64,000 bases of DNA from Parcubacteria group bacterium GW2011_GWA2_40_143 (GTDB lineage: Bacteria > Patescibacteriota > Minisyncoccia > UBA9983). This document shows, in pieces, positions 1,974-17,196 of this stretch. Position 1 is the stretch's first letter. Each line of letters starts with the position of its first letter. The notes below the pieces were generated by a model. That model was given only the letters and a program-made list of their open reading frames with translations. It was not told where the DNA came from and searched no databases. The DNA is taken from NCBI GenBank assembly GCA_000996035.1, contig LBYH01000001.1, forward strand, positions 21,676-85,675. The letters are read 5' to 3'. Made by a program: the position numbers and the translations under genes.

Positions 1974-4900
1974 TTATTGCACTGGCGTATGATAATATGT
2001 TACCACAATTTTCGCCGAAAGGGCGGTAATATTGGTGCTTGCGTCAACAACCGTCACTTTGAGTGTATTGGAATTGGTCGGGTTTGACGGAGTGGCTATA
2101 TTCAAATCAGAAGCTGAAACTTCATGAATGATGGCAAAAGGTGTCGTAGCGCCGGTTGCCGTTCCTACCGTATAAGTCGCGGCTGTTGCCGAATTAACCT
2201 GAACTGTTACTTGCGATGGCGGCGCGGAATCAGTGGAGAAAACTCCCGTAATTTCCACAAAAGCGCTCTTAATATTATATCCGCTTTCCGGAATCTGCGC
2301 GGTAAAAGTTTGAGAATACTGGCCATCGGATTGGTTCAATGCCGTCTGTTTGGATGTTACGAAAAATTCAGTAGTTCTGGTTTCCGCCTTGCTCGTGGTA
2401 AAAGTACAAGAAGTGTCGCCGCCCAAGCCATAACCTTTGCTTGTTTCATTCCCCGCCTCGTCTTTTGAACGCGCTCTGTAATAATAAACCGTATCAGGAC
2501 TTAAGCCGGTGAGTATGATTTGCTGAGGGTCGCTGTTGTATCCGGAACTTGGCGCGCCGCAAGTTTCATTGCCGCTTCCCTGCGAACAAACGGAAGAAGT
2601 AAAATTCGTCGTGGTGCTGTATTGAACTTGCTTCGTGAAAGTTGAGGACATAGCGTCTGTAAGATACCAGATGATAGTCGCCCCGCCGGCGGTCAAACTG
2701 CCGTGCATCGGGCAAGAAGTGGTTATGGCCGGCGCCGTCGCGTCTATGTAAAAATCCACATCGTTTGGATCCGTATTCCCGCCAAAAGAAACCCAATCGC
2801 TCGGATAATCACCGGTGCCATCACAAGCGGATGTGTGCGTTCCGCCTTTATTGTGGCAAACTCTGGCTTGCCAATGATATTGGGTATTAGTGGAAAGAAC
2901 GGTTGAAACTTGCCCCGTGGCAGGACCCGGGCCGGCTTGTCCCGTGCCTTCCGCCGTTACCGCGTTGGTAAAGGCCACGCCCACCGCTTTGGCTTCTATC
3001 TGCGGATAAAGAGTTCCGCCAGAAACTGAAGCTTGCATTGTCATCTGGAAATATATAGTGGTGGAACTGGCCGCCCCTCCAACGCTTATTGAATCCGTGT
3101 AGCCGGAATTTTTGAATTGATCGAGGACGGACGGGTTGCTAGGAGTATTGGAAAGCAAGGTTAAGTTTAACGCGTTGGAATCATATCCGTTTGACTTAAC
3201 AACGACATTTCCAGAAGCGGCGCCGGTCGGCACTTTTACATTAACGCCAACCGTGGAAGAATCTCCGTTCGCCCAAGTATTAAGCAATGTCGCGTCAACG
3301 GCATTGTAAAAAGTTATTTTATTGTCCGCGTCAAGCGCGCCCGGGCAGCTTGCCGCGCCGGCTTGACACAAATGATTGCCGATAATTTCCACATTATCAC
3401 CCACAGCCGGATTAACCGGATTAAATTCCGTTATCTTCGGCAACACCCTAAACCCATTGGAATCGTAAGCATTATCTTCTTTTGAACCGGTATCGGCGGC
3501 TCTGGTGATTTTAATATCTCCGAGATAAACATTATCCGCTATTGAGGTAGGAACAACCACGGTAATGGCGGTATCAGACCAAGTAACATCAACGGCTGGA
3601 ACGAGAATGTCGCCAAAATTACCGATAAAATTAACCGCGCCTTCCGTAACTCCGAATCGTTTGCCATCAATGTTGATATTATCAGCTTCTCTGGCTTGAG
3701 TGGGTATATTGGTAACCTCCGGGTAAATATAAAAATCTCGTCTTGCATCATCTTGTGTTCCTCCGACAGTCGCCAACAGGCCTTTTCCTGATGCCGCTGT
3801 TCCTCCATAAGTGGTTACTTGAGTTGACGGAATAGTCGCTGAAATAGTGGTGTTGTTGGCGTTGTTACAAGTGAGAGTTGTGCCTTCCACTTGGATTGAT
3901 ATAGAACCACAAACCGTGCCGAAGCCGGCGCCGGTGATCGTAATATTTTGACCATTCCTTGCGCCAAGATTATTTAAAACAGCCTCGCTAATGTTGTCGT
4001 AGGAAGTAACATTTGGACGGATAGTGGTGGAGCCGGAAAGCTGAACCGGATAGGTTCCCGCTTTAGTTGTGCCGTTTTGCAAAGTAAAATCTGTTGAACT
4101 GGTTATTTCCAAATCAATCGCCTGCCCGCCAACAGCACCCATCGCAATATCAAAAACGACATAAACGCAAGTGTAATTACTCCCAACCGTCACCGGTATG
4201 CTTAAACCCGAAAGCGTCATTTTGTCTGTCGTAACATCAAAAGTATCACTCACTAATGTTTCAGTTCCATTATACGCGCAAGTAGCAACTCCGCTTTCGT
4301 ATCTTATGCCCGCGTTAGCGCTTAAATTCGCGTTCGCGTTCACAGTGCCGGCTTCGGAAATAGTCAAAGCAGTAATAGTATCTGCGCTTCCGCTTGTTTG
4401 CTGAAAAGTAAATGCCGCGCCAACATATTGACCGGTGGCACCGGAATCAAGATTGACTGTTTGCGTTCCGCTTGAAGCCGCCGTAACTTGCGGTGGTGCT
4501 GATGTCGTCCCAGAACCCGCAGTACTCAAACCTGTTTGATCTCCATCCTCGTTTTTCGCTTTTGATTGAAAATCATATAGTGTGCCAGCTGTTAGTCCGT
4601 TGATAGTTAAGCTGGTAAGTTGCGTATCAGTTAACCAAACTTCGGTCACTGAAGCGTTACCTAAAGCATTCACCCATTTGCCATTCCAGTTGGCATCAGC
4701 AGTAGTAACCTGCACCGCAAAATTAGTTACGGGATTAGAAAGAGGGTTTCCATTTTCGTTGTTGGTAATAACAAGAGTGGTTTCAGTCGGAGAACCAACA
4801 GCCGGCGCAGTCGGCGTGTTAGCAGAAGTATATAGAGTAGTAATACCGGAATATCCGGTCTCGTTTGGAGTGCCAGCGTTGTCGCGCGCCTTTACCTTAT

Positions 4901-7900
4901 ATCCATAACATTTGTTTACCGAAAGCCCTGTGTCGCTATAAGTAGTGCCTGCCTGCCATCCACTATCCGCCGCACCTATGCCGACATTTGCACCAACACA
5001 AGCAGTGGTATCCAAAGCGAAATAATAACTAACTGGTGGAGTAGTGGCATCAGTGGCGGTGGTGGCAGTCATATCAATCTGCGTGGCGCTCGTATTTGAC
5101 GGAGCCGTAGCAAAAGTCATTGGGTCGGGTGTTGGAGGTGTGGTGTCATTGGCAATAGTAAAAGTCAAGCCATTGCTTGTATATGGACTTCCCCCTCCTG
5201 TAGTAACCGTTACACTGTATCCGCCATTGGTTAGCGTTGGAGCATTAGCGATGATTTCAATATGAGTAGGTATGCCTGTAACTGTGGCATTAGCAGTTCC
5301 CCACTTTACATCATTACCATCGTCGGGAGTAGTGTTGAATGTAACGGCGGAGGGACAGGCTCCTGTTTGACACAAGTGATCGCCGGCAATAGTAGTGGAT
5401 TGACCGTTCGGACCGGTATTTGGTGTGAGTGAAATAATTCTTGGTAAAATTCTAAATCCATCTGCCGAATATGCTAACCCTGTTTTGGAGTCAGAATTTC
5501 TGGTAATTCTAATATCGCCAAGATAAATACTGTCGCTCAAAGTAGTTGGCACAGTGACGGTAATAGAGGTATCTGACCAAGTAATACCACCTGTGGCAGG
5601 AACAGCAGCGCCGAAACCACCGACAAAATCAATAGTGCCTGCAGTAGCTCCAAAGTGATTTCCACCAAAAGTAATACTGTCGTTTTCTTTGGCCGCATCG
5701 CCACCGGGCCAGCTGGTGATTTTAGGAAGGATGATAAAACCAGCGGAATTATCAGATAAGGTATTGTCTCCTTCTGTTCCTTGATAGGCGACAACAGTAA
5801 CCGAGTTGTTGGCGTCATTAATAGCTGAAGGTACCACTGCTTGAATAGAAGTATCTCCCCAAGTTGATATTGTTGCCGCTACTCCATCAATAGTTACCTT
5901 GTTAGTTCCTTGAGTTGTGCCAAATCTTGTACCGGTAATAGTAACAGTGTCGCCTTCTTTTGCTTCACCTACACCAGAGGGAGAGATGGAAGTAATATCT
6001 GGATATACTTTGAACGATAGAGGTGTGGTGTCCGCTTGAGAGTTAGCGGTAACTGTAAGATTGTTTCCATAAACGGTGATGGCTGATGGAATATTGAATG
6101 TAATAGAGGCAGCTGACCATGCTGTAACATTAGCAGTTGGTATTTGATAAGTTCCCACCTTGACATTGTTGGTGGCAGTAGAACGGTTAGCCGCTCCCGG
6201 ATCAGCTCCGAAATTAGTACCGGTGATGACAATGGTTTGACCAACTCTCGCTCCGAGATTATTCAATCCCGATTCAGTGCTGTTGGTGAAAGAGGTGGCG
6301 TTGGGTGGCGTCGCCGCAGGCGTAAAAGTCCCAATAGCAACCCCGACATCATAGTTGCCATTGGTATCACGGCTGAAAACTTTGTAAGTGTAGGCCTGTC
6401 CATTAGTCAAAGCAGTAGTAGTACAACCAGCACTTCCTCCTGTACCATCAATCTTGCTTTGAACAGCGGAAGCAGTGGAGGAAATGACACAAGCGACAGT
6501 GGCAGTGGTAATAGTGTTACCGGCAGAATAGGCCGAGCCTTCGGCTGGGACTTCAGAACCAGCAGTGCCAGAAGCCCAACGGAGAACAACGGAACCAGAA
6601 GTGGTATTAAAATCAGCAGAGTTAGAAGCTGTCCAATTGATAGTGTTAGCAGTATCTCCGGCTGTACCAGAAACAGAAGTGGCGCCATTAGGTGAAAGGT
6701 TATCTAAAGTCATAGTAGCGCTACCAGAGTCAGTGCCCGCTTGTGTAGCATTGCCACTGGTAAAGCCAGTCACTGTGGCAGTGATAGCATACGAAGCGCC
6801 AGGAGGAACAGGCATAGAGCCGTGTGCTTTAGCCGTTAATTTAATTTTGAATTGAGTGTTAGTGATAGAAACAGGAATACCACAAGTAGAAAGCGAAGCG
6901 GAGTCGCCAGAAGGAGTTGCGGAACAATAGGTTACTGTGTCGCCGTCATTAGTAATCGCCACTGTTTGAATATATTGCCCCATACCAGCAGCGATGCCAA
7001 TAGTGGCGGCGGTAACTGTGTCAGTACTACCATCTGTTTGCAATCCAAAAGAATCAACCAAAGCCGATGCTCCGGGAGCGATAGTGGCATTAGACGGCTC
7101 GGCTGTAACGAAGTTTGAGATGGTTGTGATGTAGGAAGGCGCGGAAGTCGTACCCGAGCCCGCCGTGCTCAAAGCCGTTTGGTCGCCATCCTCGTTTCTC
7201 GCTTTTGATTGAAAATTATATAGCGTTCCTCCTGTTAGTCCATTAACCGTCAAGCTGGTAAGCTGTGTGTCAGTCAGCCAAACTTCGGAAACAGAAGCGT
7301 TACCCGTAGCATCAACCCACTTACCATTCCAGTTAGCATCAGCAGTAGTAACCTGCACCGCGAAAGAGGTGGTTGGATTAGAAAGAGGGTTTCCATTTTC
7401 GTTGTTGGTAATAACAAGAGTGGTTTCAGTCGGACTGCCCACCGTCGGCGCGCTCGGCGTGTTGGCTGAAGTGTAAAGAGTGGTAATGCCAGAATAACCG
7501 GTTTCATTTGGAGTGCCGACGGAATCGCGCGCTTTTACTTTATAGCCGTAACATTTGTTTACATCAAGACCAATGTCGCTGTATGTTGTGCCTGCCTGCC
7601 ATCCGCTATCAGCGGCGCCGGCGCCGATATTAGCGACAACACAAGAAGTAGTATCCAAGGCAAAATAGTAACTGACTGGCGGTGTCGTGGCATCAGTAGC
7701 AGTAGTCGCTGTCATATCAATCTGCGAGGCGCTCGTATTGCTCGGCGCCGAAGCAAAAGTCATCGGGTCGGGGGTGGGCGGGGTCGTATCAGCAGGTGGT
7801 GGCGCCGGTTTTAGCGCGATAGACATCATTGCCTTATAGGTATTTGTTGATACAGTAACAGCAGTTGCCCCATAATTTCCAGCCGTTACTTTTTCTCCGC

Positions 7901-8711
7901 TTGCTACACCTAAGGCACCTCCATTATTAGTATTTTTAGCATTATCGCTTTGCTCTGTGAGGCTGGAAAGATTGGCATTGGCCCAACCAGAAAAAACAGT
8001 TGTGCTATTTCCGTCAGGCAACGCGGTGGCGATAGCTGTCACTACAAGGGTATTATCTACGGTCGTAATGGCGCCGGGTATAGAACCGCTGTTATCCGCT
8101 ACTGCTTCAACCCCACCAGCTGTCACATCCCATGGATCTCCAGTGGTGATAACTCCACTGTACGCGGATATTCTTGCGAATTGATGGTCGCCGGAATCTC
8201 CCAAACTGGGGTTGCCTTGCGTTCCGTTATATCTTGACCAAAAGGCCGTAAGGCGAGTGCCGGCTGTGCCAGCCACGCCGGCGGTTTGTGGAGAATTGGT
8301 AACTTCTGTCCATGTTCCGCCACCTTGATTGGTAATAGAAACCGCTTGTGCTCCTGTCTCAACAAAAAGAAGCAAGATATCATCTGTTTGAATTCCTGAC
8401 GGCAAGGCAGGAGTGATTGCGGCAGCGCCGGCAGCAAAAGTTCCATTGGCAATCCATACTGGCGCCGTGGCCGCGCGCGCTTCTTCAATTTTCCACCCCT
8501 CTTTCAAATTTCTTAACGAAGTAAACTTATCAACAACATTATCGTCTTGCGACAAACGCCATGCGCGGTCTACGATATTGCCGGTCTTAATATATCCTTC
8601 AATCGCGCCAGACAACATATAAAAAGGAATATTAGAAAACACCACGCCAAAAATCACCAAAACAATGGCGGAGTTGCGGAAAAATTTTAATAATTTTTTA
8701 ACTATTTTCAT
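1974..8711 (-). CDS. Giant (2245 aa) Thr/Ser/Gly/Ala-rich cell-surface protein with an N-terminal membrane anchor and repeated Ig-like/IPT/FN3-like modules
   Basis: Single uninterrupted 6.7-kb ORF. An N-terminal transmembrane helix is present. Repeated protein modules are visible in the translation: two copies of a roughly 210-aa TTPPTPDPMTFA...SGTTSAP block, and two or more copies of an ITGT(N/R)FG / GGNHFG IPT/TIG-like block. The composition is strongly biased towards T/S/G/A. Confidence 0.7.
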   Translation of the reverse strand: MKIVKKLLKFFRNSAIVLVIFGVVFSNIPFYMLSGAIEGYIKTGNIVDRAWRLSQDDNVVDKFTSLRNLKEGWKIEEARAATAPVWIANGTFAAGAAAITPALPSGIQTDDILLLFVETGAQAVSITNQGGGTWTEVTNSPQTAGVAGTAGTRLTAFWSRYNGTQGNPSLGDSGDHQFARISAYSGVITTGDPWDVTAGGVEAVADNSGSIPGAITTVDNTLVVTAIATALPDGNSTTVFSGWANANLSSLTEQSDNAKNTNNGGALGVASGEKVTAGNYGATAVTVSTNTYKAMMSIALKPAPPPADTTPPTPDPMTFASAPSNTSASQIDMTATTATDATTPPVSYYFALDTTSCVVANIGAGAADSGWQAGTTYSDIGLDVNKCYGYKVKARDSVGTPNETGYSGITTLYTSANTPSAPTVGSPTETTLVITNNENGNPLSNPTTSFAVQVTTADANWNGKWVDATGNASVSEVWLTDTQLTSLTVNGLTGGTLYNFQSKARNEDGDQTALSTAGSGTTSAPSYITTISNFVTAEPSNATIAPGASALVDSFGLQTDGSTDTVTAATIGIAAGMGQYIQTVAITNDGDTVTYCSATPSGDSASLSTCGIPVSITNTQFKIKLTAKAHGSMPVPPGASYAITATVTGFTSGNATQAGTDSGSATMTLDNLSPNGATSVSGTAGDTANTINWTASNSADFNTTSGSVVLRWASGTAGSEVPAEGSAYSAGNTITTATVACVISSTASAVQSKIDGTGGSAGCTTTALTNGQAYTYKVFSRDTNGNYDVGVAIGTFTPAATPPNATSFTNSTESGLNNLGARVGQTIVITGTNFGADPGAANRSTATNNVKVGTYQIPTANVTAWSAASITFNIPSAITVYGNNLTVTANSQADTTPLSFKVYPDITSISPSGVGEAKEGDTVTITGTRFGTTQGTNKVTIDGVAATISTWGDTSIQAVVPSAINDANNSVTVVAYQGTEGDNTLSDNSAGFIILPKITSWPGGDAAKENDSITFGGNHFGATAGTIDFVGGFGAAVPATGGITWSDTSITVTVPTTLSDSIYLGDIRITRNSDSKTGLAYSADGFRILPRIISLTPNTGPNGQSTTIAGDHLCQTGACPSAVTFNTTPDDGNDVKWGTANATVTGIPTHIEIIANAPTLTNGGYSVTVTTGGGSPYTSNGLTFTIANDTTPPTPDPMTFATAPSNTSATQIDMTATTATDATTPPVSYYFALDTTACVGANVGIGAADSGWQAGTTYSDTGLSVNKCYGYKVKARDNAGTPNETGYSGITTLYTSANTPTAPAVGSPTETTLVITNNENGNPLSNPVTNFAVQVTTADANWNGKWVNALGNASVTEVWLTDTQLTSLTINGLTAGTLYDFQSKAKNEDGDQTGLSTAGSGTTSAPPQVTAASSGTQTVNLDSGATGQYVGAAFTFQQTSGSADTITALTISEAGTVNANANLSANAGIRYESGVATCAYNGTETLVSDTFDVTTDKMTLSGLSIPVTVGSNYTCVYVVFDIAMGAVGGQAIDLEITSSTDFTLQNGTTKAGTYPVQLSGSTTIRPNVTSYDNISEAVLNNLGARNGQNITITGAGFGTVCGSISIQVEGTTLTCNNANNTTISATIPSTQVTTYGGTAASGKGLLATVGGTQDDARRDFYIYPEVTNIPTQAREADNINIDGKRFGVTEGAVNFIGNFGDILVPAVDVTWSDTAITVVVPTSIADNVYLGDIKITRAADTGSKEDNAYDSNGFRVLPKITEFNPVNPAVGDNVEIIGNHLCQAGAASCPGALDADNKITFYNAVDATLLNTWANGDSSTVGVNVKVPTGAASGNVVVKSNGYDSNALNLTLLSNTPSNPSVLDQFKNSGYTDSISVGGAASSTTIYFQMTMQASVSGGTLYPQIEAKAVGVAFTNAVTAEGTGQAGPGPATGQVSTVLSTNTQYHWQARVCHNKGGTHTSACDGTGDYPSDWVSFGGNTDPNDVDFYIDATAPAITTSCPMHGSLTAGGATIIWYLTDAMSSTFTKQVQYSTTTNFTSSVCSQGSGNETCGAPSSGYNSDPQQIILTGLSPDTVYYYRARSKDEAGNETSKGYGLGGDTSCTFTTSKAETRTTEFFVTSKQTALNQSDGQYSQTFTAQIPESGYNIKSAFVEITGVFSTDSAPPSQVTVQVNSATAATYTVGTATGATTPFAIIHEVSASDLNIATPSNPTNSNTLKVTVVDASTNITALSAKIVVTYYHTPVQ
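4521..5150. repeat. Internal direct repeat, copy A of a roughly 630-bp duplicated segment inside the giant gene
   Basis: Roughly 85-90% nucleotide identity to 7165-7795 by eye. Long runs are shared, for example ccattccagtt(g/a)gcatcagcagtagtaacctgcaccgc and agagggtttccattttcgttgttggtaataacaagagtggtttcagtcgg. Confidence 0.7.
7165..7795. repeat. Internal direct repeat, copy B (about 2.64 kb from copy A, same orientation)
   Basis: Same as copy A. The translated copies are roughly 90% identical at the protein level. Confidence 0.7.
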
Positions 8712-9254: not shown

Positions 9255-10202
9255 TTATTCCTTATATTCTTTCACATAATTATACACCTTTTCTGAAATA
9301 TCTTTAATGATTTCTTTTGCCTTTTGTTCGGTTTCATCTTTTATCATCACCGTAAGAATGTATGGACGATCCTTCTCATAAACAATACCGGAATCAAGAT
9401 ATATTTTTTTATCCTCGTCCACGCCAATCTTGTGCGAGAAGAGAATATCTTGAGGTAGACCACTTTGAATATAATTATAAAATGACGATTGCGATAAATA
9501 TGAAAGCAGTTTTTGCGAGTTATCTTCGTTGGCATAAGAAGCAGAATACAACGCTCTTACTATAACTGAATATCTTTTAGCGCTTAAACTTCCATTAGTT
9601 TCCAAGAAACTATCTAATCCTATATGACTATAAACATCTTCTATTTCTTCCATCTCAAGATTTCGTACCAAAATAAAATGCGCGGTGTTATCTGAGTCCA
9701 CCAATGAACGCTTGATTAAATCTTCTATGGTATGTGTTGTATTAGTTTTTTCTTTGTATAGAGTACCGAACTTATCGTCCTTATCCGTCGACATCAAAAC
9801 CAGTTCATTCGTCCATTTCCAATTTCCTTTTTCAATTTTTTTTGCCACCGCCATTGCAACGGGTACTTTAAGGAGCGATGCCGGGTAAAATTCAGCGTCT
9901 TTATTCATTGAAATATTGGAACCCGTTGGCAAGTATTCAAAATAAATAGAAATATTCGGATCAGCTTCGTATTTGTCATTCAAATAATCGCGAAGTGGCT
10001 GAAAATTAATAATCAAATCTTCCTGTTTAATAAATTCTCTCGCGGGATTTAATAAATTATATTTGTCTTTCACAACATCGGAAGATTTTGGCTTGAAAAA
10101 ATAAGCAAAAAAGTTGCTGGAAATCAAAATGAGAATAATAAAATACAAAAAATAATTTATTTTATTATTTTTTGTATTTATATCTTGTCTATTTCTTTTC
10201 AT
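9255..10202 (-). CDS. Membrane-anchored class A beta-lactamase-like serine hydrolase
   Basis: 315 aa with an N-terminal transmembrane helix. SxxK (ASLLK), SDN (DSDNTAHFIL, compare TEM SDNTAANLL) and a KIG in the KTG position. Confidence 0.6.
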   Translation of the reverse strand: MKRNRQDINTKNNKINYFLYFIILILISSNFFAYFFKPKSSDVVKDKYNLLNPAREFIKQEDLIINFQPLRDYLNDKYEADPNISIYFEYLPTGSNISMNKDAEFYPASLLKVPVAMAVAKKIEKGNWKWTNELVLMSTDKDDKFGTLYKEKTNTTHTIEDLIKRSLVDSDNTAHFILVRNLEMEEIEDVYSHIGLDSFLETNGSLSAKRYSVIVRALYSASYANEDNSQKLLSYLSQSSFYNYIQSGLPQDILFSHKIGVDEDKKIYLDSGIVYEKDRPYILTVMIKDETEQKAKEIIKDISEKVYNYVKEYKE

Positions 10203-10294
10203 GTCTTTTTATTATACCACTTCCAAAAAAATACGCCTGTGGAAAACCGTCCCAGCCTAAGCACCCGATATCCGGACGTCGGACCTCCAGATTA

Positions 10295-12304
10295 TTACAG
10301 TTTTATTCTCTTGAGCGTAAGGGCGTTGGCTACCACTATTACGGTGGACATGCTCATTATGATGGCGCCTATTTCCGGTCTTAAAAAAAAGCCGAGCGAG
10401 GCGAAAGCGCCAGCGGCGGCCGGAATGGCCACGACGTTGTAGCCAAGCGCCCAAATAAGATTCTGAATCATTTTGCCATAAACTTTCTTGGAAAGAATGA
10501 TTAAACGCGCCGCGTCCATGGGATTGCTGCGCGTAAGCACTACGTCGCCGGCTTCAGCCGCCACGTCCGTACCGGCGCCAATGGCTACCCCGATATCAGC
10601 TTGAGCCAGCGCTGGCGCGTCGTTTACGCCGTCGCCGACCATCATCACCACGCTGCCGTCTTCCTGAAGTTTTTTGATATATTTATATTTATCTTCCGGC
10701 AATACTTCGGCAAAATATATTTCTATACCAAGAGCTTCAGCCGCGTTTCTTGCCGTTTCTTTGTTATCGCCTGTTATCATGACGGGCTTGATGCCCATAC
10801 TCTTTATGGCTTTTACCGCCTCGTAAGATTCTGTCCTTATCTTATCGGCAAGCGCGATAAGACCGATCAATCTTCCGTCTTTTGCCACGAAAACAACCGT
10901 TTTGCTCTGCCTTAAAAAATCTTGATGCGGCTCTTTTCTCTCTTCAAGCACTTCGTTTTCCGCCATAAAACTTTTATTGCCTATCAAATATTCGCTGTTC
11001 CCCACTAAGGCTTTAACTCCCTTGCCAGCAATATTTTTAAAATCTCGGATTGACGCAAGCTCAATACTTTTTTCTCGCGCGTAATTCACTATCGCGTTTG
11101 CGATAACATGCGATGAATGTTTTTCCACCGAGGCAACAAGGCCTATAAATTGTTTCTCGTCTCCATAATCTTCCGTCAAAAGAGCAATGTCCGTTACGCC
11201 GAAACCGCCCTCCGTGAGAGTGCCGGTTTTATCAAACACGACATAGCTGGCGTTTTTTATTATTTCCAATTTGGAAAGATCTTTTATAAAAATTCCGTTT
11301 TTGGCGGCCAGAGAAGTGGCAATGGAAGTAACGGCCGGTATTGCCAAACCAAGCGCGTGCGGACAAGCTATTACCAATACCGTGATAGCTAGCGTAAAGG
11401 CAAAAACCAGCGGCTGGCCAAAAACAAAAGCCCAGATAAGCAAAGCGAGAACGGCGGCGGCGGCGGCGACAAAAGTCAAGACTCCGGCCGCTTTATCAGC
11501 CAAGCGTTGCGAAGAAGGCTTGGTTTTTTGCGCTTTGGCAATAAGATTTTTAATCTGCCCTATCGTTGAGTTTTCTCCCGCTCTGGTTATTTTTACGGTA
11601 AGCGAACCGTCCAAACAGATGGAACCGGCCACCACCTTGCTTTCCTTTTTCTTTTCAACCGGTTTTGACTCGCCGGTGATGAGCGCTTCGTTTACGTTAG
11701 CGCCGCCTTCTATCACCTCGCCATCGGCCGGCGCTTTCTCACCCGGCCTTATAAACACAATATCGCCTTCTTTAAGCGCCGATACGTCAACCTCTTCCTC
11801 CATTCCGTCTTTTATAACACGCGCCTTCTTTGGCAAAAGCTTGGCTATCTCCTCAAGCGCGTTTCCAGCCGCGGCGCCAGATCTGGCTTCCAAATAATGG
11901 CCAAACATCAACACCCAAATAAGCGTGGATATCTCAAGATAAAACTTGATCTCCAAAGCCGGCACAAAAACACCGGCAACCGAGAAGAGATAACCGGATC
12001 CCACTGCCAAAGAAACTAGCGTCATCATGCCGTATTTTCTTGTCTTTATCTCATGCCAAGCATGGCGAAAAAACACCAGACCAAACCAAAAGACAGCCGA
12101 AGCGATAATAAATTGAATATAATCATTTAAGATATAGCCCTCAAGACCGAAAATTTTAGAACCAATTCCGCTGCTTAAAAATAATGGAACAAGTAGAGCG
12201 GTAATAATCCAAAATTTGTTTAGAAATTCTTTCGCCGATCCGTGAGAAGACATGCCGCCGCCGCTTGAGTGACAGCAATGATTGTTTTTATTTTCCATGT
12301 TCAT
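10295..12304 (-). CDS. copB: Heavy-metal (copper) translocating P1B-type ATPase, CopB-like
   Basis: 669 aa. Cys/His-rich N-terminus (NNHCCHSSGGGMSSHGS), transmembrane CPH motif (VIACPHALG), DKTGTLT phosphorylation motif, MITGDN, GDGVNDAPAL. Confidence 0.9.
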   Translation of the reverse strand: MNMENKNNHCCHSSGGGMSSHGSAKEFLNKFWIITALLVPLFLSSGIGSKIFGLEGYILNDYIQFIIASAVFWFGLVFFRHAWHEIKTRKYGMMTLVSLAVGSGYLFSVAGVFVPALEIKFYLEISTLIWVLMFGHYLEARSGAAAGNALEEIAKLLPKKARVIKDGMEEEVDVSALKEGDIVFIRPGEKAPADGEVIEGGANVNEALITGESKPVEKKKESKVVAGSICLDGSLTVKITRAGENSTIGQIKNLIAKAQKTKPSSQRLADKAAGVLTFVAAAAAVLALLIWAFVFGQPLVFAFTLAITVLVIACPHALGLAIPAVTSIATSLAAKNGIFIKDLSKLEIIKNASYVVFDKTGTLTEGGFGVTDIALLTEDYGDEKQFIGLVASVEKHSSHVIANAIVNYAREKSIELASIRDFKNIAGKGVKALVGNSEYLIGNKSFMAENEVLEERKEPHQDFLRQSKTVVFVAKDGRLIGLIALADKIRTESYEAVKAIKSMGIKPVMITGDNKETARNAAEALGIEIYFAEVLPEDKYKYIKKLQEDGSVVMMVGDGVNDAPALAQADIGVAIGAGTDVAAEAGDVVLTRSNPMDAARLIILSKKVYGKMIQNLIWALGYNVVAIPAAAGAFASLGFFLRPEIGAIIMSMSTVIVVANALTLKRIKL

Positions 12305-12312
12305 ATTTTAGT

Positions 12313-12861
12313 TTAAATCTTCAAAGCGCAAACTGACGGCTTCCCAATATTTTTCGCCGCAAAATATATGGAAAAAACAAGCAAGGCAATGCTGAAAATC
12401 TTTATTTCCTGACCGCCAAACGGAAAAAAAGAAACTAACCAGCCTCCTCCAACCGAGGATAAAAGAGAGCCGAAAACAAATGTCCCGCAAGCGCCACATC
12501 CGGCTCCCAACACTCCACTGGCGATACCTCCGGCGCCGATGGCGGTCGCGTTGCCGCCAAACTTTCTTCTTTTGTCCTTTATGTAATAAATGATTATGGA
12601 AACATTAATCCCAAAAAGAACAGAAATGATCACCAGATACACCCTCGCCCATGCCGTAAAATTTGTTTTAAACGCGCCAAGCAAGTTGACGATTGTTTTT
12701 ATTTCTTCCCAAAAACTTCCATTTGACGATAATATTTCCAAAACAAGTTTCCAGTTTGGCAACAATATGGTCAAAACAACGGACGTGACGGAAACAACAA
12801 CGGCAACCGCGAGATAATGCCGGTTTCCAAGCGCTTTCTTTAAAACTTTAAAAGCTTCCAT
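12313..12861 (-). CDS. Polytopic membrane protein with a GAGCGACG cysteine motif. Possible thiol/metal-handling partner of the ATPase and DsbA.
   Basis: 182 aa with 4-5 hydrophobic helices and a CGAC motif inside a Gly-rich helix. No confident family assignment. Confidence 0.4.
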   Translation of the reverse strand: MEAFKVLKKALGNRHYLAVAVVVSVTSVVLTILLPNWKLVLEILSSNGSFWEEIKTIVNLLGAFKTNFTAWARVYLVIISVLFGINVSIIIYYIKDKRRKFGGNATAIGAGGIASGVLGAGCGACGTFVFGSLLSSVGGGWLVSFFPFGGQEIKIFSIALLVFSIYFAAKNIGKPSVCALKI

Positions 12862-12867
12862 TTAAAA

Positions 12868-13581
12868 TTATTTTTCTTCCAAAGCCAGCTTTACCAATTC
12901 TTCAACGGATGAGTAAGGCAACGCGCCATTTATGGGAAATTTTTTGCCGTTTGGGGCGATAAGAATGCTCCACGGAGTGCCTCGCCCACCGGTAGCAATA
13001 GCATTATCAACCTCATCCTGAATATGCTTATCGTATCTGCCACTCTCAAGACATTCATTGAATTTTGTTTTGTCCAAACCCATATCAGTGGCAATTTTAG
13101 GCAAAACAATATCTATGTCCGTTCTGTTGTTTGAAGGAGTAACTTCAAAAAATTTGTCCGCGAATTCCCAAAACGCTTCTTTGCCACCAAGCTCAACCGC
13201 ACACTCCGTGGCAATCGCTTCTTTGCGCGCCTTAACAGGGTGGAGTGAATCCAACGGAAAATGCCTATACACCCAAGCCACCTCACCGGACTTGCCGTAC
13301 TCATCAATTATTTTTTTCATTGTAAAATGAAAACTCTTGCAAAACGGACATTCAAAATCGGAATATTCCACTATTTTTATAGATGCGTTCGGGTTGCCGA
13401 GGATATGATCGTTGTTTGTTATCGGACTAAGCGACTCAAGCGGATCAGCCTTTTTTTCTTTGGGAAGATTTGCGGCTGAAGGAGCAGCTTTGCTTCTTGT
13501 CATAAATATGGCGCCGGCAATTATGATGGCGGCAATTATGATGGCGGTCGGCACCGACAAATTTTTTTTATTTTCTGTCAT
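12868..13581 (-). CDS. DsbA-family thiol:disulfide oxidoreductase (thioredoxin fold), membrane-anchored
   Basis: 237 aa. N-terminal transmembrane helix, CPFC active site, downstream cis-Pro GTP motif (GRGTPW). Confidence 0.8.
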   Translation of the reverse strand: MTENKKNLSVPTAIIIAAIIIAGAIFMTRSKAAPSAANLPKEKKADPLESLSPITNNDHILGNPNASIKIVEYSDFECPFCKSFHFTMKKIIDEYGKSGEVAWVYRHFPLDSLHPVKARKEAIATECAVELGGKEAFWEFADKFFEVTPSNNRTDIDIVLPKIATDMGLDKTKFNECLESGRYDKHIQDEVDNAIATGGRGTPWSILIAPNGKKFPINGALPYSSVEELVKLALEEK

Positions 13582-13780
13582 TTTTGATATATTTGGCCAA
13601 AGCGATTACTCCCAGCACCAAAAGCGCTATTACCAAAAGCATAAAAATCCAACCGAAACCCAAACCAAACCACCCCATTGAACCATAACCACCCATCATG
13701 GAAAAATGATGGTCAATCAATCCCGCTTGTTCCCCCATTCCTCCAAAATCGGCATAAGCCGTGTTTATTATTTTAATCAT
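13568..13780 (-). CDS. Small (70 aa) membrane protein with a Gly/Met-rich N-terminal segment and a C-terminal transmembrane helix
   Basis: The ORF overlaps the dsbA-like start by 14 nt. MMGGYGSMGWFGLGFGW is followed by a transmembrane helix. Coding status is unproven. Confidence 0.35.
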   Translation of the reverse strand: MIKIINTAYADFGGMGEQAGLIDHHFSMMGGYGSMGWFGLGFGWIFMLLVIALLVLGVIALAKYIKNDRK

Positions 13781-13802
13781 ATTTTTTGATTATACTATTT
13801 TT

Positions 13803-14288
13803 TTAATTTTTAATCACGTTGCCGGCAAAAGTAACTTTTATTTCCGGTGTAACCGTTGAGTTTGTTTTAAGAAAAATCTCTCTTTTTATCGGCCCAACAC
13901 CTTCCGGACCGTGAGCCATCGGATCAAAAATCGCCGTGAGTGTTTTCTCTCCGCCAGCTGGAATTATAACTTTGCCGGAACTGCCATGCATGCCAAAATT
14001 AAGATCGCCTACCACTCCTTCGGTACACATGCAGCTGGTTCCGCCAGAAAGAATAACTACGTCTGAGTCTCCAGTATTTTGAAGAACATAACCCGTTTCC
14101 ACTTTGCCGCCAAAAATATCAATATCGCCGAAATCGTAATGCGGATTTATGGCGACAACAGAAGAAGCTGAGGCTTGAGGCTCTGATTTTCTGTTTATTA
14201 TTTTTTCATCTTTATTACCAGAAAAACCGATTGCGGCTCCGATACCCAAAACAATAACCGCGATTGACAAAATTATATATTTGTTCAT
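13803..14288 (-). CDS. DUF1573-domain protein (secreted/anchored, beta-sandwich with conserved Cys pair)
   Basis: 161 aa. HYDFGDIDIFGGKVETGYVLQNTGDSDVVILSGGTSCMCTEG matches the DUF1573 signature (DFG..., N.G, SC.CT). Confidence 0.6.
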   Translation of the reverse strand: MNKYIILSIAVIVLGIGAAIGFSGNKDEKIINRKSEPQASASSVVAINPHYDFGDIDIFGGKVETGYVLQNTGDSDVVILSGGTSCMCTEGVVGDLNFGMHGSSGKVIIPAGGEKTLTAIFDPMAHGPEGVGPIKREIFLKTNSTVTPEIKVTFAGNVIKN

Positions 14289-14317
14289 GTTTTAATATTT
14301 TTTAATTTTAATAATTT

Positions 14318-15172
14318 TTATCGACCTTCTTCTATATCTACTTGTATCGTAATCTCCGCTTCTGGCGTACTCGGATCATTGGTTGGTATAAAAATGGTGC
14401 GCTTAAAAATATCTTTAGGCTCATCGTGAAAATCAGGATCAAAACGGACAATCATCTCGGCTGATTCTCCGGACGCGATTGCCGAAGACGAGATAGATGC
14501 GGAAGTGCAACTACAGCTGGTGGTAATTTTGCCTATTTCAAGCGTTTTTACGCCATCGTTTCTTACTTTAAATTTAGCTTCCACCACGCCGCCGTATTGC
14601 GGCACTAAACCGAAATCATGAAAAGTCCGGTCAAAAGATATTTTCGGATCATTCGGCGCGACATCTTCATTGCCCATGTTTTTTTGCTCTTCATAAGCAC
14701 CAGCTTCCACAAAAGGATGTCCATCCTCCAACCAATGAATCATGCCGCCAGACATACTTTTAATGTTGGTGTAACCGAGAGAACTCATAATATCATAGGC
14801 TGTTTTGCTTCTGGCGCCGCTGCGACAATAAATAATTATTTCTTTATTTTTTGCTTCTTCACCAAGACCCACTTCAGCCAATGTTTTTTCATTAAGATTC
14901 TGCACCGGCAAAAGGATCGCGTTTTGCAGATGACTTTCTTCATATTCCGCTGGCGTACGCACGTCAAGTAAAATAATATTCTCTTTATTTTTTATCTTGT
15001 TGGCGATATTTGACGGACTTATCTCATACGTTTCCAGATTATCCATATGTTCTTTTTCTTTTTTTAAATCCATTAAATCATTTTTATTTTCATTGCTGCC
15101 AGCTGAAAACAATAACGCTATTCCCGCAAAAATCATTATAACGATCCCGCCAATAATAATTTTTTTAAACAT
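14318..15172 (-). CDS. Rhodanese (sulfurtransferase) domain fused to a C-terminal DUF1573 domain, membrane-anchored
   Basis: 284 aa. N-terminal transmembrane helix, rhodanese active-site loop CRSGARS, and a C-terminal FHDFGLVPQYGGVVEAKFKVRNDGVKTLEIGKITTSCSCTSA DUF1573 signature. Confidence 0.75.
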   Translation of the reverse strand: MFKKIIIGGIVIMIFAGIALLFSAGSNENKNDLMDLKKEKEHMDNLETYEISPSNIANKIKNKENIILLDVRTPAEYEESHLQNAILLPVQNLNEKTLAEVGLGEEAKNKEIIIYCRSGARSKTAYDIMSSLGYTNIKSMSGGMIHWLEDGHPFVEAGAYEEQKNMGNEDVAPNDPKISFDRTFHDFGLVPQYGGVVEAKFKVRNDGVKTLEIGKITTSCSCTSASISSSAIASGESAEMIVRFDPDFHDEPKDIFKRTIFIPTNDPSTPEAEITIQVDIEEGR

Positions 15173-15177
15173 GTTTT

Positions 15178-15489
15178 TTATTTTTTCTTTGATAATTTAT
15201 AAACCGACAAAATTTCTTCCACAGCTTTGGATGACTTACTGCCTTTAATCTGTTCAACGACATGCGTAGCCAGATGATTCTCAAGCATAAGATCTTCCAC
15301 GGAAGAGAGCGCCTGCCGCGCGGCTTGAGTCTGCGTAATAATGTCTATGCAATACTTGTGATCTTCCACCATCTTTTGCAGACCCTTTACCTGACCTTCG
15401 GCAATTTTAAGCCGCCTTAAAACTTTCTTCTGAATATCTTTTCTCATAACAACTGTATGATACCCCCTATGGGTATTTGTGTCAAACAC
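15178..15489 (-). CDS. csoR: CsoR/RcnR/FrmR-family metal-sensing transcriptional repressor
   Basis: 103 aa. RLKIAEGQVKGLQKMVEDHKYCIDIITQTQAARQAL matches the DUF156/CsoR helix bundle. A Cys sits in the xYC motif and His residues lie downstream. Confidence 0.85.
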   Translation of the reverse strand: MFDTNTHRGYHTVVMRKDIQKKVLRRLKIAEGQVKGLQKMVEDHKYCIDIITQTQAARQALSSVEDLMLENHLATHVVEQIKGSKSSKAVEEILSVYKLSKKK

Positions 15490-15516
15490 TTGTCAAGGTC
15501 AGACCTTGGCAAGTCA

Positions 15517-17196
15517 TTACAGAAATAATCTTGCCAATCGCAGGTCTTCGTAAGAATATTTGCCGCCGAGAATTTCATAAACCGGAGCGAGTTTTGTTTC
15601 TTTCACTTTTTTGAACACCTCGCTTATTATTTTAAAATCTCTTTCTTTCGGCTTATAAGCGCTCAAGTCAAGCGCCGGATTTTTCATCTTTAATTTTTCC
15701 AAATGAGAAATTATCGTGCCCGGCGTCATTCCCCTTTTTTTGGCGATTTCCGCGAGTGGCATTTTTTCAGACACAAGCGCCAAAGTTTTTTCGCAAGTGG
15801 ATATTTTTTCCTTAAACGCCTCTTTTTTATCTTTTTTTTTAGCGGTATTTCTGGCGATTTCTTTTTCATCAATCATACCGCCGATTTTCTTCAAAAAATT
15901 TATATGCATTTCATTCATCTCTTTATCGCTAAATCGTTCCAGCACCTTTTCCCATTTTGCCGATTCGGCCAGTAAACGCGCGTCAACTTCCATCGCGCGC
16001 GGATGCATCATAAGCGCCATATCGTTAAATCCGCGAAGCGACAAGCCGGCGAAATCACGCAAACGCGACAGCGCCACGTAACCTTGTCCGGGAACAAACG
16101 CTTTAGATAGATCAATTTCCGCCGCGTCCAAACTCATCCCTTGACTTTTATGCACCGTTATCGCCCACGCCAATCTCAATGGCAACTGCTCCACTCTCGC
16201 CAAAACCTTTTCGTCTTCTTCCACCGTCCATTTCGCTAAAGTTACGCGTATCATATCGCCCGAAAATGTCCGCACAATCGGCATGCCCTCATTATCAAAG
16301 TCTTTCACTTTTCCCAGAGTGCCATTGGCATATCCTTCATCAAAAGAATTTTTTACAAACATCACCACCGCCCCCTTTTTTAAACGAAGAGTCTCCGGCG
16401 CCAATATTCCTTTTTTAAGCGATTCCACCATGCTCGCTTTTCCGCCAGCCGACATTTCATAAACGTGCGCTTTGCCTTCTAATTTTTCCAGCTCTCTTTC
16501 GTTTTCCGCGTCCACGTCAATATTGTGCGTATAAAGCCGAGTCGGAGAAACTGATTTTAAAGACGCCGAATTATTTTCACAAATTTCCGCCAATTTGTTT
16601 TTTGACGCCGGCGAAATACCACCTTGGCGCATTTCATTTAAAATCTTTTCCAATGAAGAATCTTTTTGCCTGAATTGTTCAGACAAATAACAAATACGAA
16701 CGTCCATTTTATTCCAAGCTTCAGACGAGTGGATGAAATCGGCATTTCCTCCTTCTTTTGTTATGGGAGGCAACTGAAAAAAATCACCGGACAACACTAC
16801 CTGCATCCCGCCAAACGGCTCTTCGCTTCGCTTCATCGCCCTGCATACTCTCTCCACCGAATCAAACAATCGGGAAGAAAGCATGGATACTTCATCTATG
16901 ATAAGGACTTTGGTTTTCTCAAATTTTTTATACAGATATTCTTTTTGGATAAGCCGCTCTATATCTTCATCATTTAAATCGTCTTTAATGCCGGCGCCGG
17001 ACCACGAATGAATCGTTACTCCGCCTATATGCGTAGCGGCAATACCGGTAGATGCCGTAACGGCCGCGCGCGCTCCGCGATTTTTGAGATAAGAAATATA
17101 CTCATTAAGAACATGAGTTTTTCCGCTTCCCGCCGCGCCGGTAAGATAAACATTTTTCCCCGCCTTCAATATTTTAAGAGCGTCTTTCTGCTTCAT
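15517..17196 (-). CDS. Pif1/RecD-family ATP-dependent DNA helicase with a C-terminal HTH-like domain
   Basis: 559 aa. Walker A VYLTGAAGSGKT, Walker B LIIDEVSM, Pif1-type GDFFQLPPI motif. Confidence 0.8.
   Translation of the reverse strand: MKQKDALKILKAGKNVYLTGAAGSGKTHVLNEYISYLKNRGARAAVTASTGIAATHIGGVTIHSWSGAGIKDDLNDEDIERLIQKEYLYKKFEKTKVLIIDEVSMLSSRLFDSVERVCRAMKRSEEPFGGMQVVLSGDFFQLPPITKEGGNADFIHSSEAWNKMDVRICYLSEQFRQKDSSLEKILNEMRQGGISPASKNKLAEICENNSASLKSVSPTRLYTHNIDVDAENERELEKLEGKAHVYEMSAGGKASMVESLKKGILAPETLRLKKGAVVMFVKNSFDEGYANGTLGKVKDFDNEGMPIVRTFSGDMIRVTLAKWTVEEDEKVLARVEQLPLRLAWAITVHKSQGMSLDAAEIDLSKAFVPGQGYVALSRLRDFAGLSLRGFNDMALMMHPRAMEVDARLLAESAKWEKVLERFSDKEMNEMHINFLKKIGGMIDEKEIARNTAKKKDKKEAFKEKISTCEKTLALVSEKMPLAEIAKKRGMTPGTIISHLEKLKMKNPALDLSAYKPKERDFKIISEVFKKVKETKLAPVYEILGGKYSYEDLRLARLFL

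Follow-up and report, generated by a model that had tools for sequence, protein, structure and literature searches.

A candidate copper-inducible efflux operon with a rhodanese-DUF1573 module in Parcubacteria

Among the described systems closest to the locus analysed here are two groups of copper-responsive operons. Operons regulated by CsoR, among them B. subtilis copZA, M. tuberculosis cso, T. thermophilus copZ-csoR-copA and S. aureus copB-mco, couple an autoregulated CsoR-family repressor to a P1B copper ATPase, and their promoter is covered by a GC-rich pseudo-palindrome of the ATACCC...GGGTAT type. Copper also induces Dsb-like systems, as known for Scs (PMC10907172) and for P. aeruginosa dsbDEG (bioRxiv 10.1101/2020.08.17.255257), and both ScsC and ScsB bind Cu(I) (PMC10907172). 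We examined a stretch of 64,000 nucleotides from Parcubacteria group bacterium GW2011_GWA2_40_143 (contig LBYH01000001.1, positions 21,676 to 85,675; hereafter the window) in which a repressor, box and ATPase like those of the first group are joined, in seven minus-strand genes, to a rhodanese-DUF1573 fusion protein, a second DUF1573 protein and a DsbA-like protein with a membrane partner. With moderate confidence, we read this locus as a copper-inducible efflux operon carrying an extracytoplasmic thiol module, in which the DUF1573 pair would handle Cu(I) and the DsbA pair would guard envelope cysteines.

A CsoR-type repressor, its operator and a CopB-type ATPase

The seven open reading frames (ORFs; Table 1) run in one direction across 10295-15489 as first read, or 10295-15447 with the csoR start corrected, and the intergenic gaps along the operon measure 5, 29, 22, -14, 6 and 8 nt. 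From the promoter, the order is csoR, the fusion gene, the stand-alone DUF1573 gene, and the genes for a 70-amino-acid (aa) Gly/Met-rich membrane protein, the DsbA-like protein, a 182-aa membrane protein with a CxxC motif and a CPH-type P1B ATPase. The initial annotation, made from the sequence alone, had described seven co-directional, tightly packed genes; this layout was confirmed, with no gap above 29 nt, and all the motifs it quoted (SCSCT, SCMCTEG, CPFC, CGACG and CPH) were found.

The promoter elements ahead of csoR (-35 at 15485-15480, -10 at 15462-15457) enclose a CsoR box that lies within the spacer and overlaps the -10. This TACCC-N5-GGGTA box is unique in the window and normally present once per related locus; published CsoR boxes of the same type are ATACCCCnnnGGGGTAT in C. 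glutamicum and TATACCCnnnnnGGGTATA in Bradyrhizobium (PMC5057107). The operator that the initial annotation had proposed to seek near csoR is thus present, and the layout of TTGAC, box, TAT(T/C)AT and ATG (mostly +12) recurs in about 26 further non-identical promoter regions of related Patescibacteria loci. In one of the related loci, L024, the rhodanese-DUF1573 module lies apart from csoR, and a second box stands ahead of the small CPF-motif membrane-protein gene that heads it; the module itself is therefore within the CsoR regulon.

The GTG at 15489 was rejected as the csoR start because the ORF from it runs through its own promoter. Judged from the sequence, the true start is the ATG at 15447, which gives a protein of 89 aa like the orthologues. 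This ATG lies 13 nt past the box and about 9 nt past the -10, a spacing kept in nearly all of the roughly 26 related loci; because the distance to the -10 is so short, we take the csoR mRNA to be probably leaderless. Recognisable Shine-Dalgarno sequences are absent ahead of all seven genes, the upstream regions being A/T-rich. A terminator scan gave no convincing candidate, either past copB or in the intergenic gaps, and an Rfam scan of 9500-16500 gave no RNA family. Between the stop of a helicase-like gene (15517) and the csoR promoter we observed a palindrome at 15488-15514, with 13-nt arms ACTTGTCAAGGTC and GACCTTGGCAAGT that are 92% complementary and 1 nt apart, one of them overlapping a second TTGACA. 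It is not a classic terminator, because it has no T-run, and could serve either as an additional site of regulation or to terminate the helicase-like gene by a hairpin.

The repressor matches PF02583 at 87.5 bits (cut-off 22.8), and its best relatives in the PDB are the copper CsoRs 4m1p, 4adz, 3aai and 2hh7 (Geobacillus, Streptomyces, Thermus and M. tuberculosis), with InrS and FrmR scoring below them. These matches bear out the early call of a CsoR-type repressor heading the operon, with a correction to its start codon. The protein has a single Cys and an x-C-H-H fingerprint (Cys, His at +25, His at +29) rather than the canonical x-C-H-C set of Cu(I) ligands. x-C-H-H is the ligand set of Thermus CsoR, the regulator of the copZ-csoR-copA operon, and such a ligand cluster is considered likely to sense Cu(I) (PMC5057107, PMC11672702). 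The second-shell pair that PMC11672702 connects with Cu(I) allostery is present as well: a Tyr directly before the Cys (in KYCIDI) and a Glu 16 residues past the last ligand (in AVEEIL), both aligned with their counterparts in Geobacillus CsoR 4m1p. On these residues, the repressor would fall in the Cu(I)-sensing branch of CsoR as an x-C-H-H variant, and its inducer would be copper. Five orthologues at the same boxes, before the same genes, carry C-H-C and others C-H-H; this swapping of the two forms at one box offers natural-variation evidence for x-C-H-H CsoRs as copper sensors.

Three other identities for the repressor were considered and rejected: RcnR, since its N-terminus, MRKDIQ, lacks His3 of the H-C-H-H set and the NCBIfam score is far under the cut-off; FrmR, since Pro2 is absent and the NCBIfam score is likewise far under the cut-off; and CstR, since persulfide sensing by CstR needs two Cys. 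The initial annotation had named a nickel or formaldehyde subfamily as an outcome that would undo its reading, and the missing His3 and Pro2 place the repressor in neither.

The ATPase carries IACPHALG (CPH), GYNVVAIP (YN-x4-P), MSMSTVIV (MSxST) and FDKTGT (DKTGT); P1B-3 in the Arguello classification is marked by CPH at the metal site within the membrane, by YN-x4-P and MSxST in the final two helices, and by DKTGT. The protein scores 577.8 bits against TIGR01511 (cut-off 397), its nucleotide-binding domain scores 243.6 bits against A. fulgidus CopB (3skx) versus 196.7 bits against CopA (3a1c), and no HMA domain was found in it with Pfam. By these sequence marks it is a CopB-type (P1B-3) pump. 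The earlier description of a His-rich, CPH-motif, CopB-type ATPase therefore stands for motif and type; the N-terminus is only modestly His-rich here, a short segment with four His and two Cys (HCCH) in about 22 residues, and that of the L035 orthologue is strongly so. A second P-type ATPase, encoded at about 21900-23700 on the minus strand and 24-38% identical to the CopB gene over fragments, is presumably of another subclass.

The rhodanese-DUF1573 module and its neighbours across Patescibacteria

Six metagenome or genome loci and 35 genome loci were compared by tblastn, and removal of near-identical copies left 35 non-redundant loci. In 29 of these 35, the fusion gene is followed after 18-150 nt by a DUF1573 paralogue; most of the remaining six are on contigs that end early or have a paralogue just below the identity cut-off. 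Fourteen loci have at least 5 kb on both sides, and among them csoR is present in 13, the P1B ATPase in 11, DsbA in 11, the CxxC membrane protein in ten and the DUF1573 paralogue in 13 (the copy in L005, 39% identical, falls under the cut-off), with all partner genes on the same strand. By our estimate, proximity within 10 kb would arise by chance at a rate of a few per cent if a genome of about 1 Mb encodes one or two ATPases of this kind. Recurrence in 35 non-redundant loci puts the arrangement far outside what chance would produce. In the loci sampled, the rhodanese-DUF1573 pair occurs only inside csoR/ATPase clusters. Random neighbourhoods, which would have spoken against the initial annotation, were not what we saw: in most of the well-flanked loci DUF1573 is clustered with csoR, the P1B ATPase and DsbA. 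Its interpretation linking DUF1573 to a sulfurtransferase and a copper exporter is supported by this survey, by the operator and by the regulator subfamily.

The fusion protein scores 67.7 bits against PF00581 and 64.8 bits against PF07610, and the stand-alone protein 35.2 bits against PF07610, for which the gathering cut-off is 26.1. The first domain has a predicted PF00581 fold with a putative catalytic Cys in a six-residue CX4R loop, C116-RSGARS; the second contains C220-S-C222 and H249. YCRSGxRS in the rhodanese loop, TSC220xC222T and FDPxxH249xEP are invariant across 25 fusion proteins. In the paralogue, the corresponding residues are C86-M-C88, H101 and H126, and TSC86xC88T, FGMH101 and DPxAH126GP are invariant across 19 sequences. 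Each protein has one N-terminal hydrophobic anchor and a short Lys-bearing N-terminus, and the bulk of both is therefore predicted to lie outside the membrane.

In an AlphaFold2 model of the fusion protein (pLDDT, predicted local distance difference test, 81), a disordered linker joins a rhodanese domain to a seven-strand sandwich. Foldseek matched the first domain to rhodaneses (3nhv, GlpE 1gmx and the rhodanese domain of YgaP) and the second to the P. gingivalis protein 2qsv and to HYDIN/PapD-like domains. In the modelled DUF1573 domain, the Cys-x-Cys is placed in the loop before one strand and DPxxH after the next strand of the hairpin. A cupredoxin-like fold, which the initial annotation had raised as a possibility for DUF1573, was not borne out, the predicted fold being instead an Ig/PapD-like sandwich. 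A sequence search of the PDB with the stand-alone protein and its profile gave no match, and the DUF1573 domain of the fusion gave a marginal match to 2qsv only. DUF1573 is also known in a selenocysteine (Sec) form, the Sec-Gly-Cys (UGC) selenoprotein OS_HP2 (PMC9312934). No functional account of any DUF1573 protein was found in the literature searched, in keeping with its earlier description as a family of no assigned function.

Homologue searches with the fusion protein and the paralogue returned only this Patescibacteria DUF1573 subfamily, to which our claim is limited. The fusion protein has 385 relatives, all of the same architecture and 55-65% identical, whose named sources are nearly all Patescibacteria lineages; the closest database protein, 100% identical, is from Parcubacteria group bacterium GW2011_GWC2_40_31. 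A second, independent fusion, in which a DUF1573 of the stand-alone type carries a C-terminal rhodanese, was found in proteins P0281 and P0350. NCBIfam matches of the window fusion to PspE, GlpE and TsoB (a rhodanese/DsbD-like fusion selenoprotein) are weak. Neither DUF1573 nor the 182-aa membrane protein had a tblastn match in 72,556 plasmids.

The cluster had been called an island. Composition does not show one; indirectly in its favour, a large serine recombinase (Resolvase/Recombinase/Zn_ribbon_recom) adjoins the cluster in nine related loci (for example L003 13058-14353 and L022 7939-9222), and no recombinase was found within 2000-26000 of the window. The unusual conservation of the proteins across Parcubacteria lineages (55-70% identity) suggests horizontal spread of the cluster. 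Two loci with a Patescibacteria-type cluster, L008 and L032, are labelled as Pseudomonadales and Bacteroidia metagenome-assembled genomes and are probably mis-binned contigs.

Further genes recur around the module. In about ten loci, the DUF1573 genes are followed by an insertion that encodes CcdA/DsbD_TM and an 85-aa thioredoxin, and L049 has the order csoR, Rho-DUF1573, DUF1573-Rho, CcdA, 62 aa, Trx, CopB, 53 aa, DsbA, membrane protein. A multicopper oxidase occurs in ten loci (nine after duplicate removal) and DUF302 in 16 (12 after duplicate removal), and DUF5676 is also recurrent. We also noted four recurrent families that lack annotation: a protein of about 300 aa after DUF1573 in about eight loci (L001 9354-10244), a membrane protein (about 136 aa, motif CPF...C...HH) directly after csoR in 15 loci (L005 7497-7907), a secreted Met-rich protein of about 106 aa in 18 loci (L012 1-319) and, in related clusters, a protein of about 158 aa with the motif GDPPGGHHR (L026 12708-13184).

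The DsbA-like protein, with its CPFC motif, has 4n30, 3f4r and BdbD (3eu3) as PDB relatives, of BdbD, DsbA and MdbA type; its similarity to ScsC (6nen, 4xvw) is marginal (E about 8e-4). Its PF13462 and PF01323 matches predict the architecture of DsbA/BdbD proteins, in which helices interrupt a thioredoxin fold and the active site is CxxC. The 182-aa membrane protein that follows it belongs to a family with 1162 representatives at 50% clustering (E<=1e-3); this count required an exhaustive HMMER search, a word-indexed search having returned only three relatives. G119, C122, C125, G126, P147, G150 and E152 are invariant, and C178 (P-x-V-C) is near-invariant. AlphaFold2 predicts a helical bundle (pLDDT 84.6, predicted template modelling score 0.77) with no PDB fold match at E<3. 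Hydropathy and charge suggest that the N-terminus is inside, that the CxxC lies near the outer end of a Gly-rich third helix and that C178 is cytoplasmic.

In every locus of the set where a homologue was detected, the 182-aa-type protein directly follows DsbA. Outside copper clusters, it stands between DsbA and a true DsbB beside ribosomal genes in L046 (6001-6543) and follows DUF305 and DsbA in L048 (1412-1957), and one distant member adjoins DnaK, DedA and MauE/DoxX. Its occurrence beside DsbA in housekeeping contexts therefore points to a general DsbA-associated protein recruited into the copper operon. L044 encodes a further member of the family at 5001-5519. Identification of the protein as DsbB, VKOR or DsbD/CcdA was rejected on the lack of any family or fold match and on the separate true DsbB in L046.

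The 70-aa ORF is a probable gene, whose product is predicted to have an extracytoplasmic His/Met/Gly-rich N-terminus, HHFSMMGGYGSMGW, followed by one transmembrane (TM) segment. The Gly/Met-rich mini membrane protein of the initial annotation is thus present; it is not a conserved orthologue at that position, although similar Gly/Met-rich TM segments recur in L001 (7207-7317), L008, L020, L013 and L024 (16564-17304). Longer proteins of related clusters, often beside DUF302, have an N-terminal half similar to it, and those of L024 end in a SHOCT-like tail, DILKERYAKGEINHKEFEQKKKDI. Elsewhere in the window, a 2245-aa ORF at 1974-8711 on the minus strand, Thr/Ser/Gly/Ala-rich with large internal duplications and an N-terminal membrane anchor, probably encodes a giant surface protein.

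Table 1. Features of the predicted copper operon (window coordinates), listed from the promoter.
Feature	Coordinates	Strand	Description
Sigma-70-type promoter, TTGACA-17-TATCAT	15457..15485	-	11/12 consensus matches
CsoR box TACCCATAGGGGGTA	15461..15475		TACCC-N5-GGGTA, flanked ATACCC...GGGTAT
csoR	15178..15447	-	89 aa; PF02583 8e-25; fingerprint x-C-H-H
Rhodanese-DUF1573 fusion	14318..15172	-	PF00581 1.3e-18 and PF07610 7.5e-18; one N-terminal TM
Stand-alone DUF1573 paralogue	13803..14288	-	PF07610 1.3e-8; membrane-anchored
70-aa His/Met/Gly-rich one-TM protein	13568..13780	-	no Pfam or NCBIfam match
Membrane-anchored DsbA/BdbD-like oxidoreductase, C78-PF-C81	12868..13581	-	PF13462 1.4e-23; PF01323 6e-16
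182-aa polytopic membrane protein, CxxC	12313..12861	-	no Pfam or NCBIfam family
CopB-type P1B copper ATPase	10295..12304	-	TIGR01511 2.5e-173

Copper handling weighed against other roles

In the mechanism that we favour, the x-C-H-H repressor would occupy the TACCC-N5-GGGTA box on the single operon promoter until cytoplasmic Cu(I) releases it and derepresses the operon, and the CopB-type ATPase would pump copper out. The set predicted at the outer face of the membrane consists of two DUF1573 Ig-like proteins, each with an exposed Cys-x-Cys and a conserved His and one fused to an active-type rhodanese, together with the DsbA-like oxidoreductase, its dedicated CxxC membrane partner and the small His/Met-rich membrane peptide. 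The DUF1573 pair may capture exported Cu(I), or pass it on, on a Cys2-His site that would have to stay reduced, by CcdA and thioredoxin where these are present. The DsbA/membrane-CxxC pair, by analogy with Scs, may maintain envelope cysteines that copper would mis-oxidise. The CcdA and thioredoxin genes placed after the DUF1573 genes in about ten loci support the need for reducing power.

Several observations weigh against this mechanism. x-C-H-H sensors may be less metal-specific, Thermus CsoR responding also to Zn, Cd and Cu(II) (PMC5057107). The window encodes no CcdA, DsbD_TM or thioredoxin, and the reductive branch is thus not universal. The predicted DUF1573 fold is a generic Ig/PapD-like sandwich, and 2qsv, the one solved relative, is without the Cys pair in the domain that aligns and therefore offers no metal site to transfer. 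Cys-x-Cys and DPxxH should lie at the same end of the modelled sandwich, a placement read only from the order of the strands. Finally, the Cys-x-Cys appears general to DUF1573, including its Sec-Gly-Cys form, and fits a redox role as well as a metal one.

Such a redox role is the core of one alternative that we consider unlikely, in which thiosulfate or persulfides supply the extracytoplasmic rhodanese with sulfane sulfur and the DUF1573 Cys-x-Cys serves as its dithiol acceptor, as thioredoxin does for GlpE-type enzymes. The sulfide, set free at the surface of the membrane, would precipitate or cap copper after its export. Re-reduction of the DUF1573 disulfide would fall to CcdA and thioredoxin or to the CxxC membrane protein, and DUF1573 would be a redox carrier rather than a copper chaperone. 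Two independent rhodanese-DUF1573 fusions, the invariant CRSGxRS loop, the position of CcdA and a small thioredoxin just past the DUF1573 genes (about ten loci), the selenocysteine (UGC) form of the motif and the weak TsoB match of the fusion protein are all consistent with such a relay. However, a pure dithiol role leaves the invariant His of the subfamily (H249; H101 and H126) unexplained, the window has neither CcdA nor thioredoxin, and the cluster encodes no source of sulfane sulfur. A Cys-x-Cys disulfide is, moreover, strained and an uncommon catalytic couple.

It is similarly improbable that the Cys proteins do not handle copper at all and act together, in the manner of Scs, as oxidoreductases that repair surface proteins by reducing or isomerising the non-native disulfides and sulfenic acids that copper induces. 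Good documentation exists for Dsb-like systems under copper induction (PMC10907172; bioRxiv 10.1101/2020.08.17.255257), the housekeeping contexts of the DsbA/membrane-CxxC pair mark it as a general redox pair, and related loci encode CcdA and thioredoxin. Against pure repair, the DUF1573 domain is not predicted to have a thioredoxin fold, the conserved His and Met beside its Cys motif look like metal ligands, and the rhodanese-DUF1573 pair, unlike the DsbA pair, was sampled only inside csoR/ATPase clusters.

The multicopper oxidase that follows the module in ten loci (nine non-duplicate) raises a further alternative, cuproenzyme maturation, in which the ATPase and DUF1573 proteins would hand Cu(I) to an extracytoplasmic cuproprotein such as this oxidase, for assembly and not detoxification. 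CopA-type efflux is reported to be required for multicopper oxidases to mature (PMC8456105). We give this alternative little credence: the window and most loci lack a multicopper oxidase, derepression of CsoR at high copper follows a detoxification logic, and the recombinases flanking the cluster in nine loci suggest a mobile resistance trait. Least probable, and largely refuted, is a cst-type persulfide-detoxification operon with a CstR-type sensor and a rhodanese that processes sulfane sulfur: the rhodanese does directly follow a CsoR-family regulator, as in cstR-cstA (PMC8643695), but this regulator has one Cys where CstR sensing needs two, the box is of the copper-CsoR type, and the genes that constantly accompany it encode P1B copper ATPases and multicopper oxidases, with no persulfide dioxygenase or TauE-like gene in the clusters compared.

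A broader proposal, which we put forward tentatively and rather doubt as a whole, would make the locus a previously undescribed extracytoplasmic copper-defence pathway of Parcubacteria, with the DUF1573 Cys-x-Cys/His as a surface Cu(I) chaperone of a new class or as a dithiol acceptor of sulfur whose sulfide neutralises exported copper, serviced by the fused rhodanese and by CcdA/thioredoxin, and with the 182-aa CxxC protein as founder of a DsbA-partner family of more than 1000 sequence clusters, in bacteria mostly without quinones.

Comparison with known copper and thiol systems

The regulatory and efflux core of the operon is ordinary for copper homeostasis of the Gram-positive type. The new parts are the conserved rhodanese-DUF1573 and DUF1573 module, with optional CcdA and thioredoxin, its membership of the CsoR regulon, and the DsbA-partner family; we found no description of any of the three in the literature searched. 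One subfamily of DUF1573, a large family without a function that includes a selenoprotein form, is now tied to copper stress through regulator, operator and operon, and the link, which recurs in dozens of related genomes, gives DUF1573 a first testable role. A large unannotated membrane family that travels with DsbA in Patescibacteria bears in turn on how disulfides are handled in the envelope of reduced, mostly quinone-less bacteria.

Within the CsoR-regulated group, the operon shares its ligand set with Thermus CsoR and its CopB type with the S. aureus copB-mco element, and some relatives of the window also share with that element a multicopper oxidase and a mobile-element association (PMC6191537). 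It differs from the group in having no CopZ/HMA chaperone, in an apparently leaderless csoR, in its Parcubacteria (candidate phyla radiation) host and in carrying four or five extracytoplasmic or membrane Cys proteins, among them rhodanese-DUF1573, DUF1573, DsbA and the CxxC membrane protein.

Compared with DUF1573 (PF07610) at large, both window domains score above the gathering threshold and have Cys-x-Cys where the selenoprotein form has Sec-Gly-Cys. The Patescibacteria subfamily adds the invariant His of DPxxH, and in the paralogue also FGMH; it is membrane-anchored, fused to or beside a rhodanese, and located within copper operons. With periplasmic single-domain rhodaneses of the PspE and GlpE type, the fusion protein shares one rhodanese domain, a CX4R-type loop and a predicted non-cytoplasmic location; it differs from them in its fusion to an Ig-like Cys-x-Cys domain and in its predicted control by copper.

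The likeness to Scs (ScsABCD) and P. aeruginosa dsbDEG lies in the copper-induced production of extracytoplasmic thiol-disulfide oxidoreductases, if copper induces the window operon as we infer. As in Scs, the DsbA-like protein has a membrane Cys protein as its partner, joined in related loci by an electron importer of the DsbD/CcdA type. However, the window has no DsbD_TM gene, its DsbA is far closer to BdbD/DsbA than to ScsC, the membrane partner is not DsbD/ScsB-like and falls in no described family, regulation is by CsoR and not by CueR or CpxR, and the rhodanese and DUF1573 components have no Scs counterpart. The operon would thus be Scs-like in function, by analogy, and not a member of Scs.

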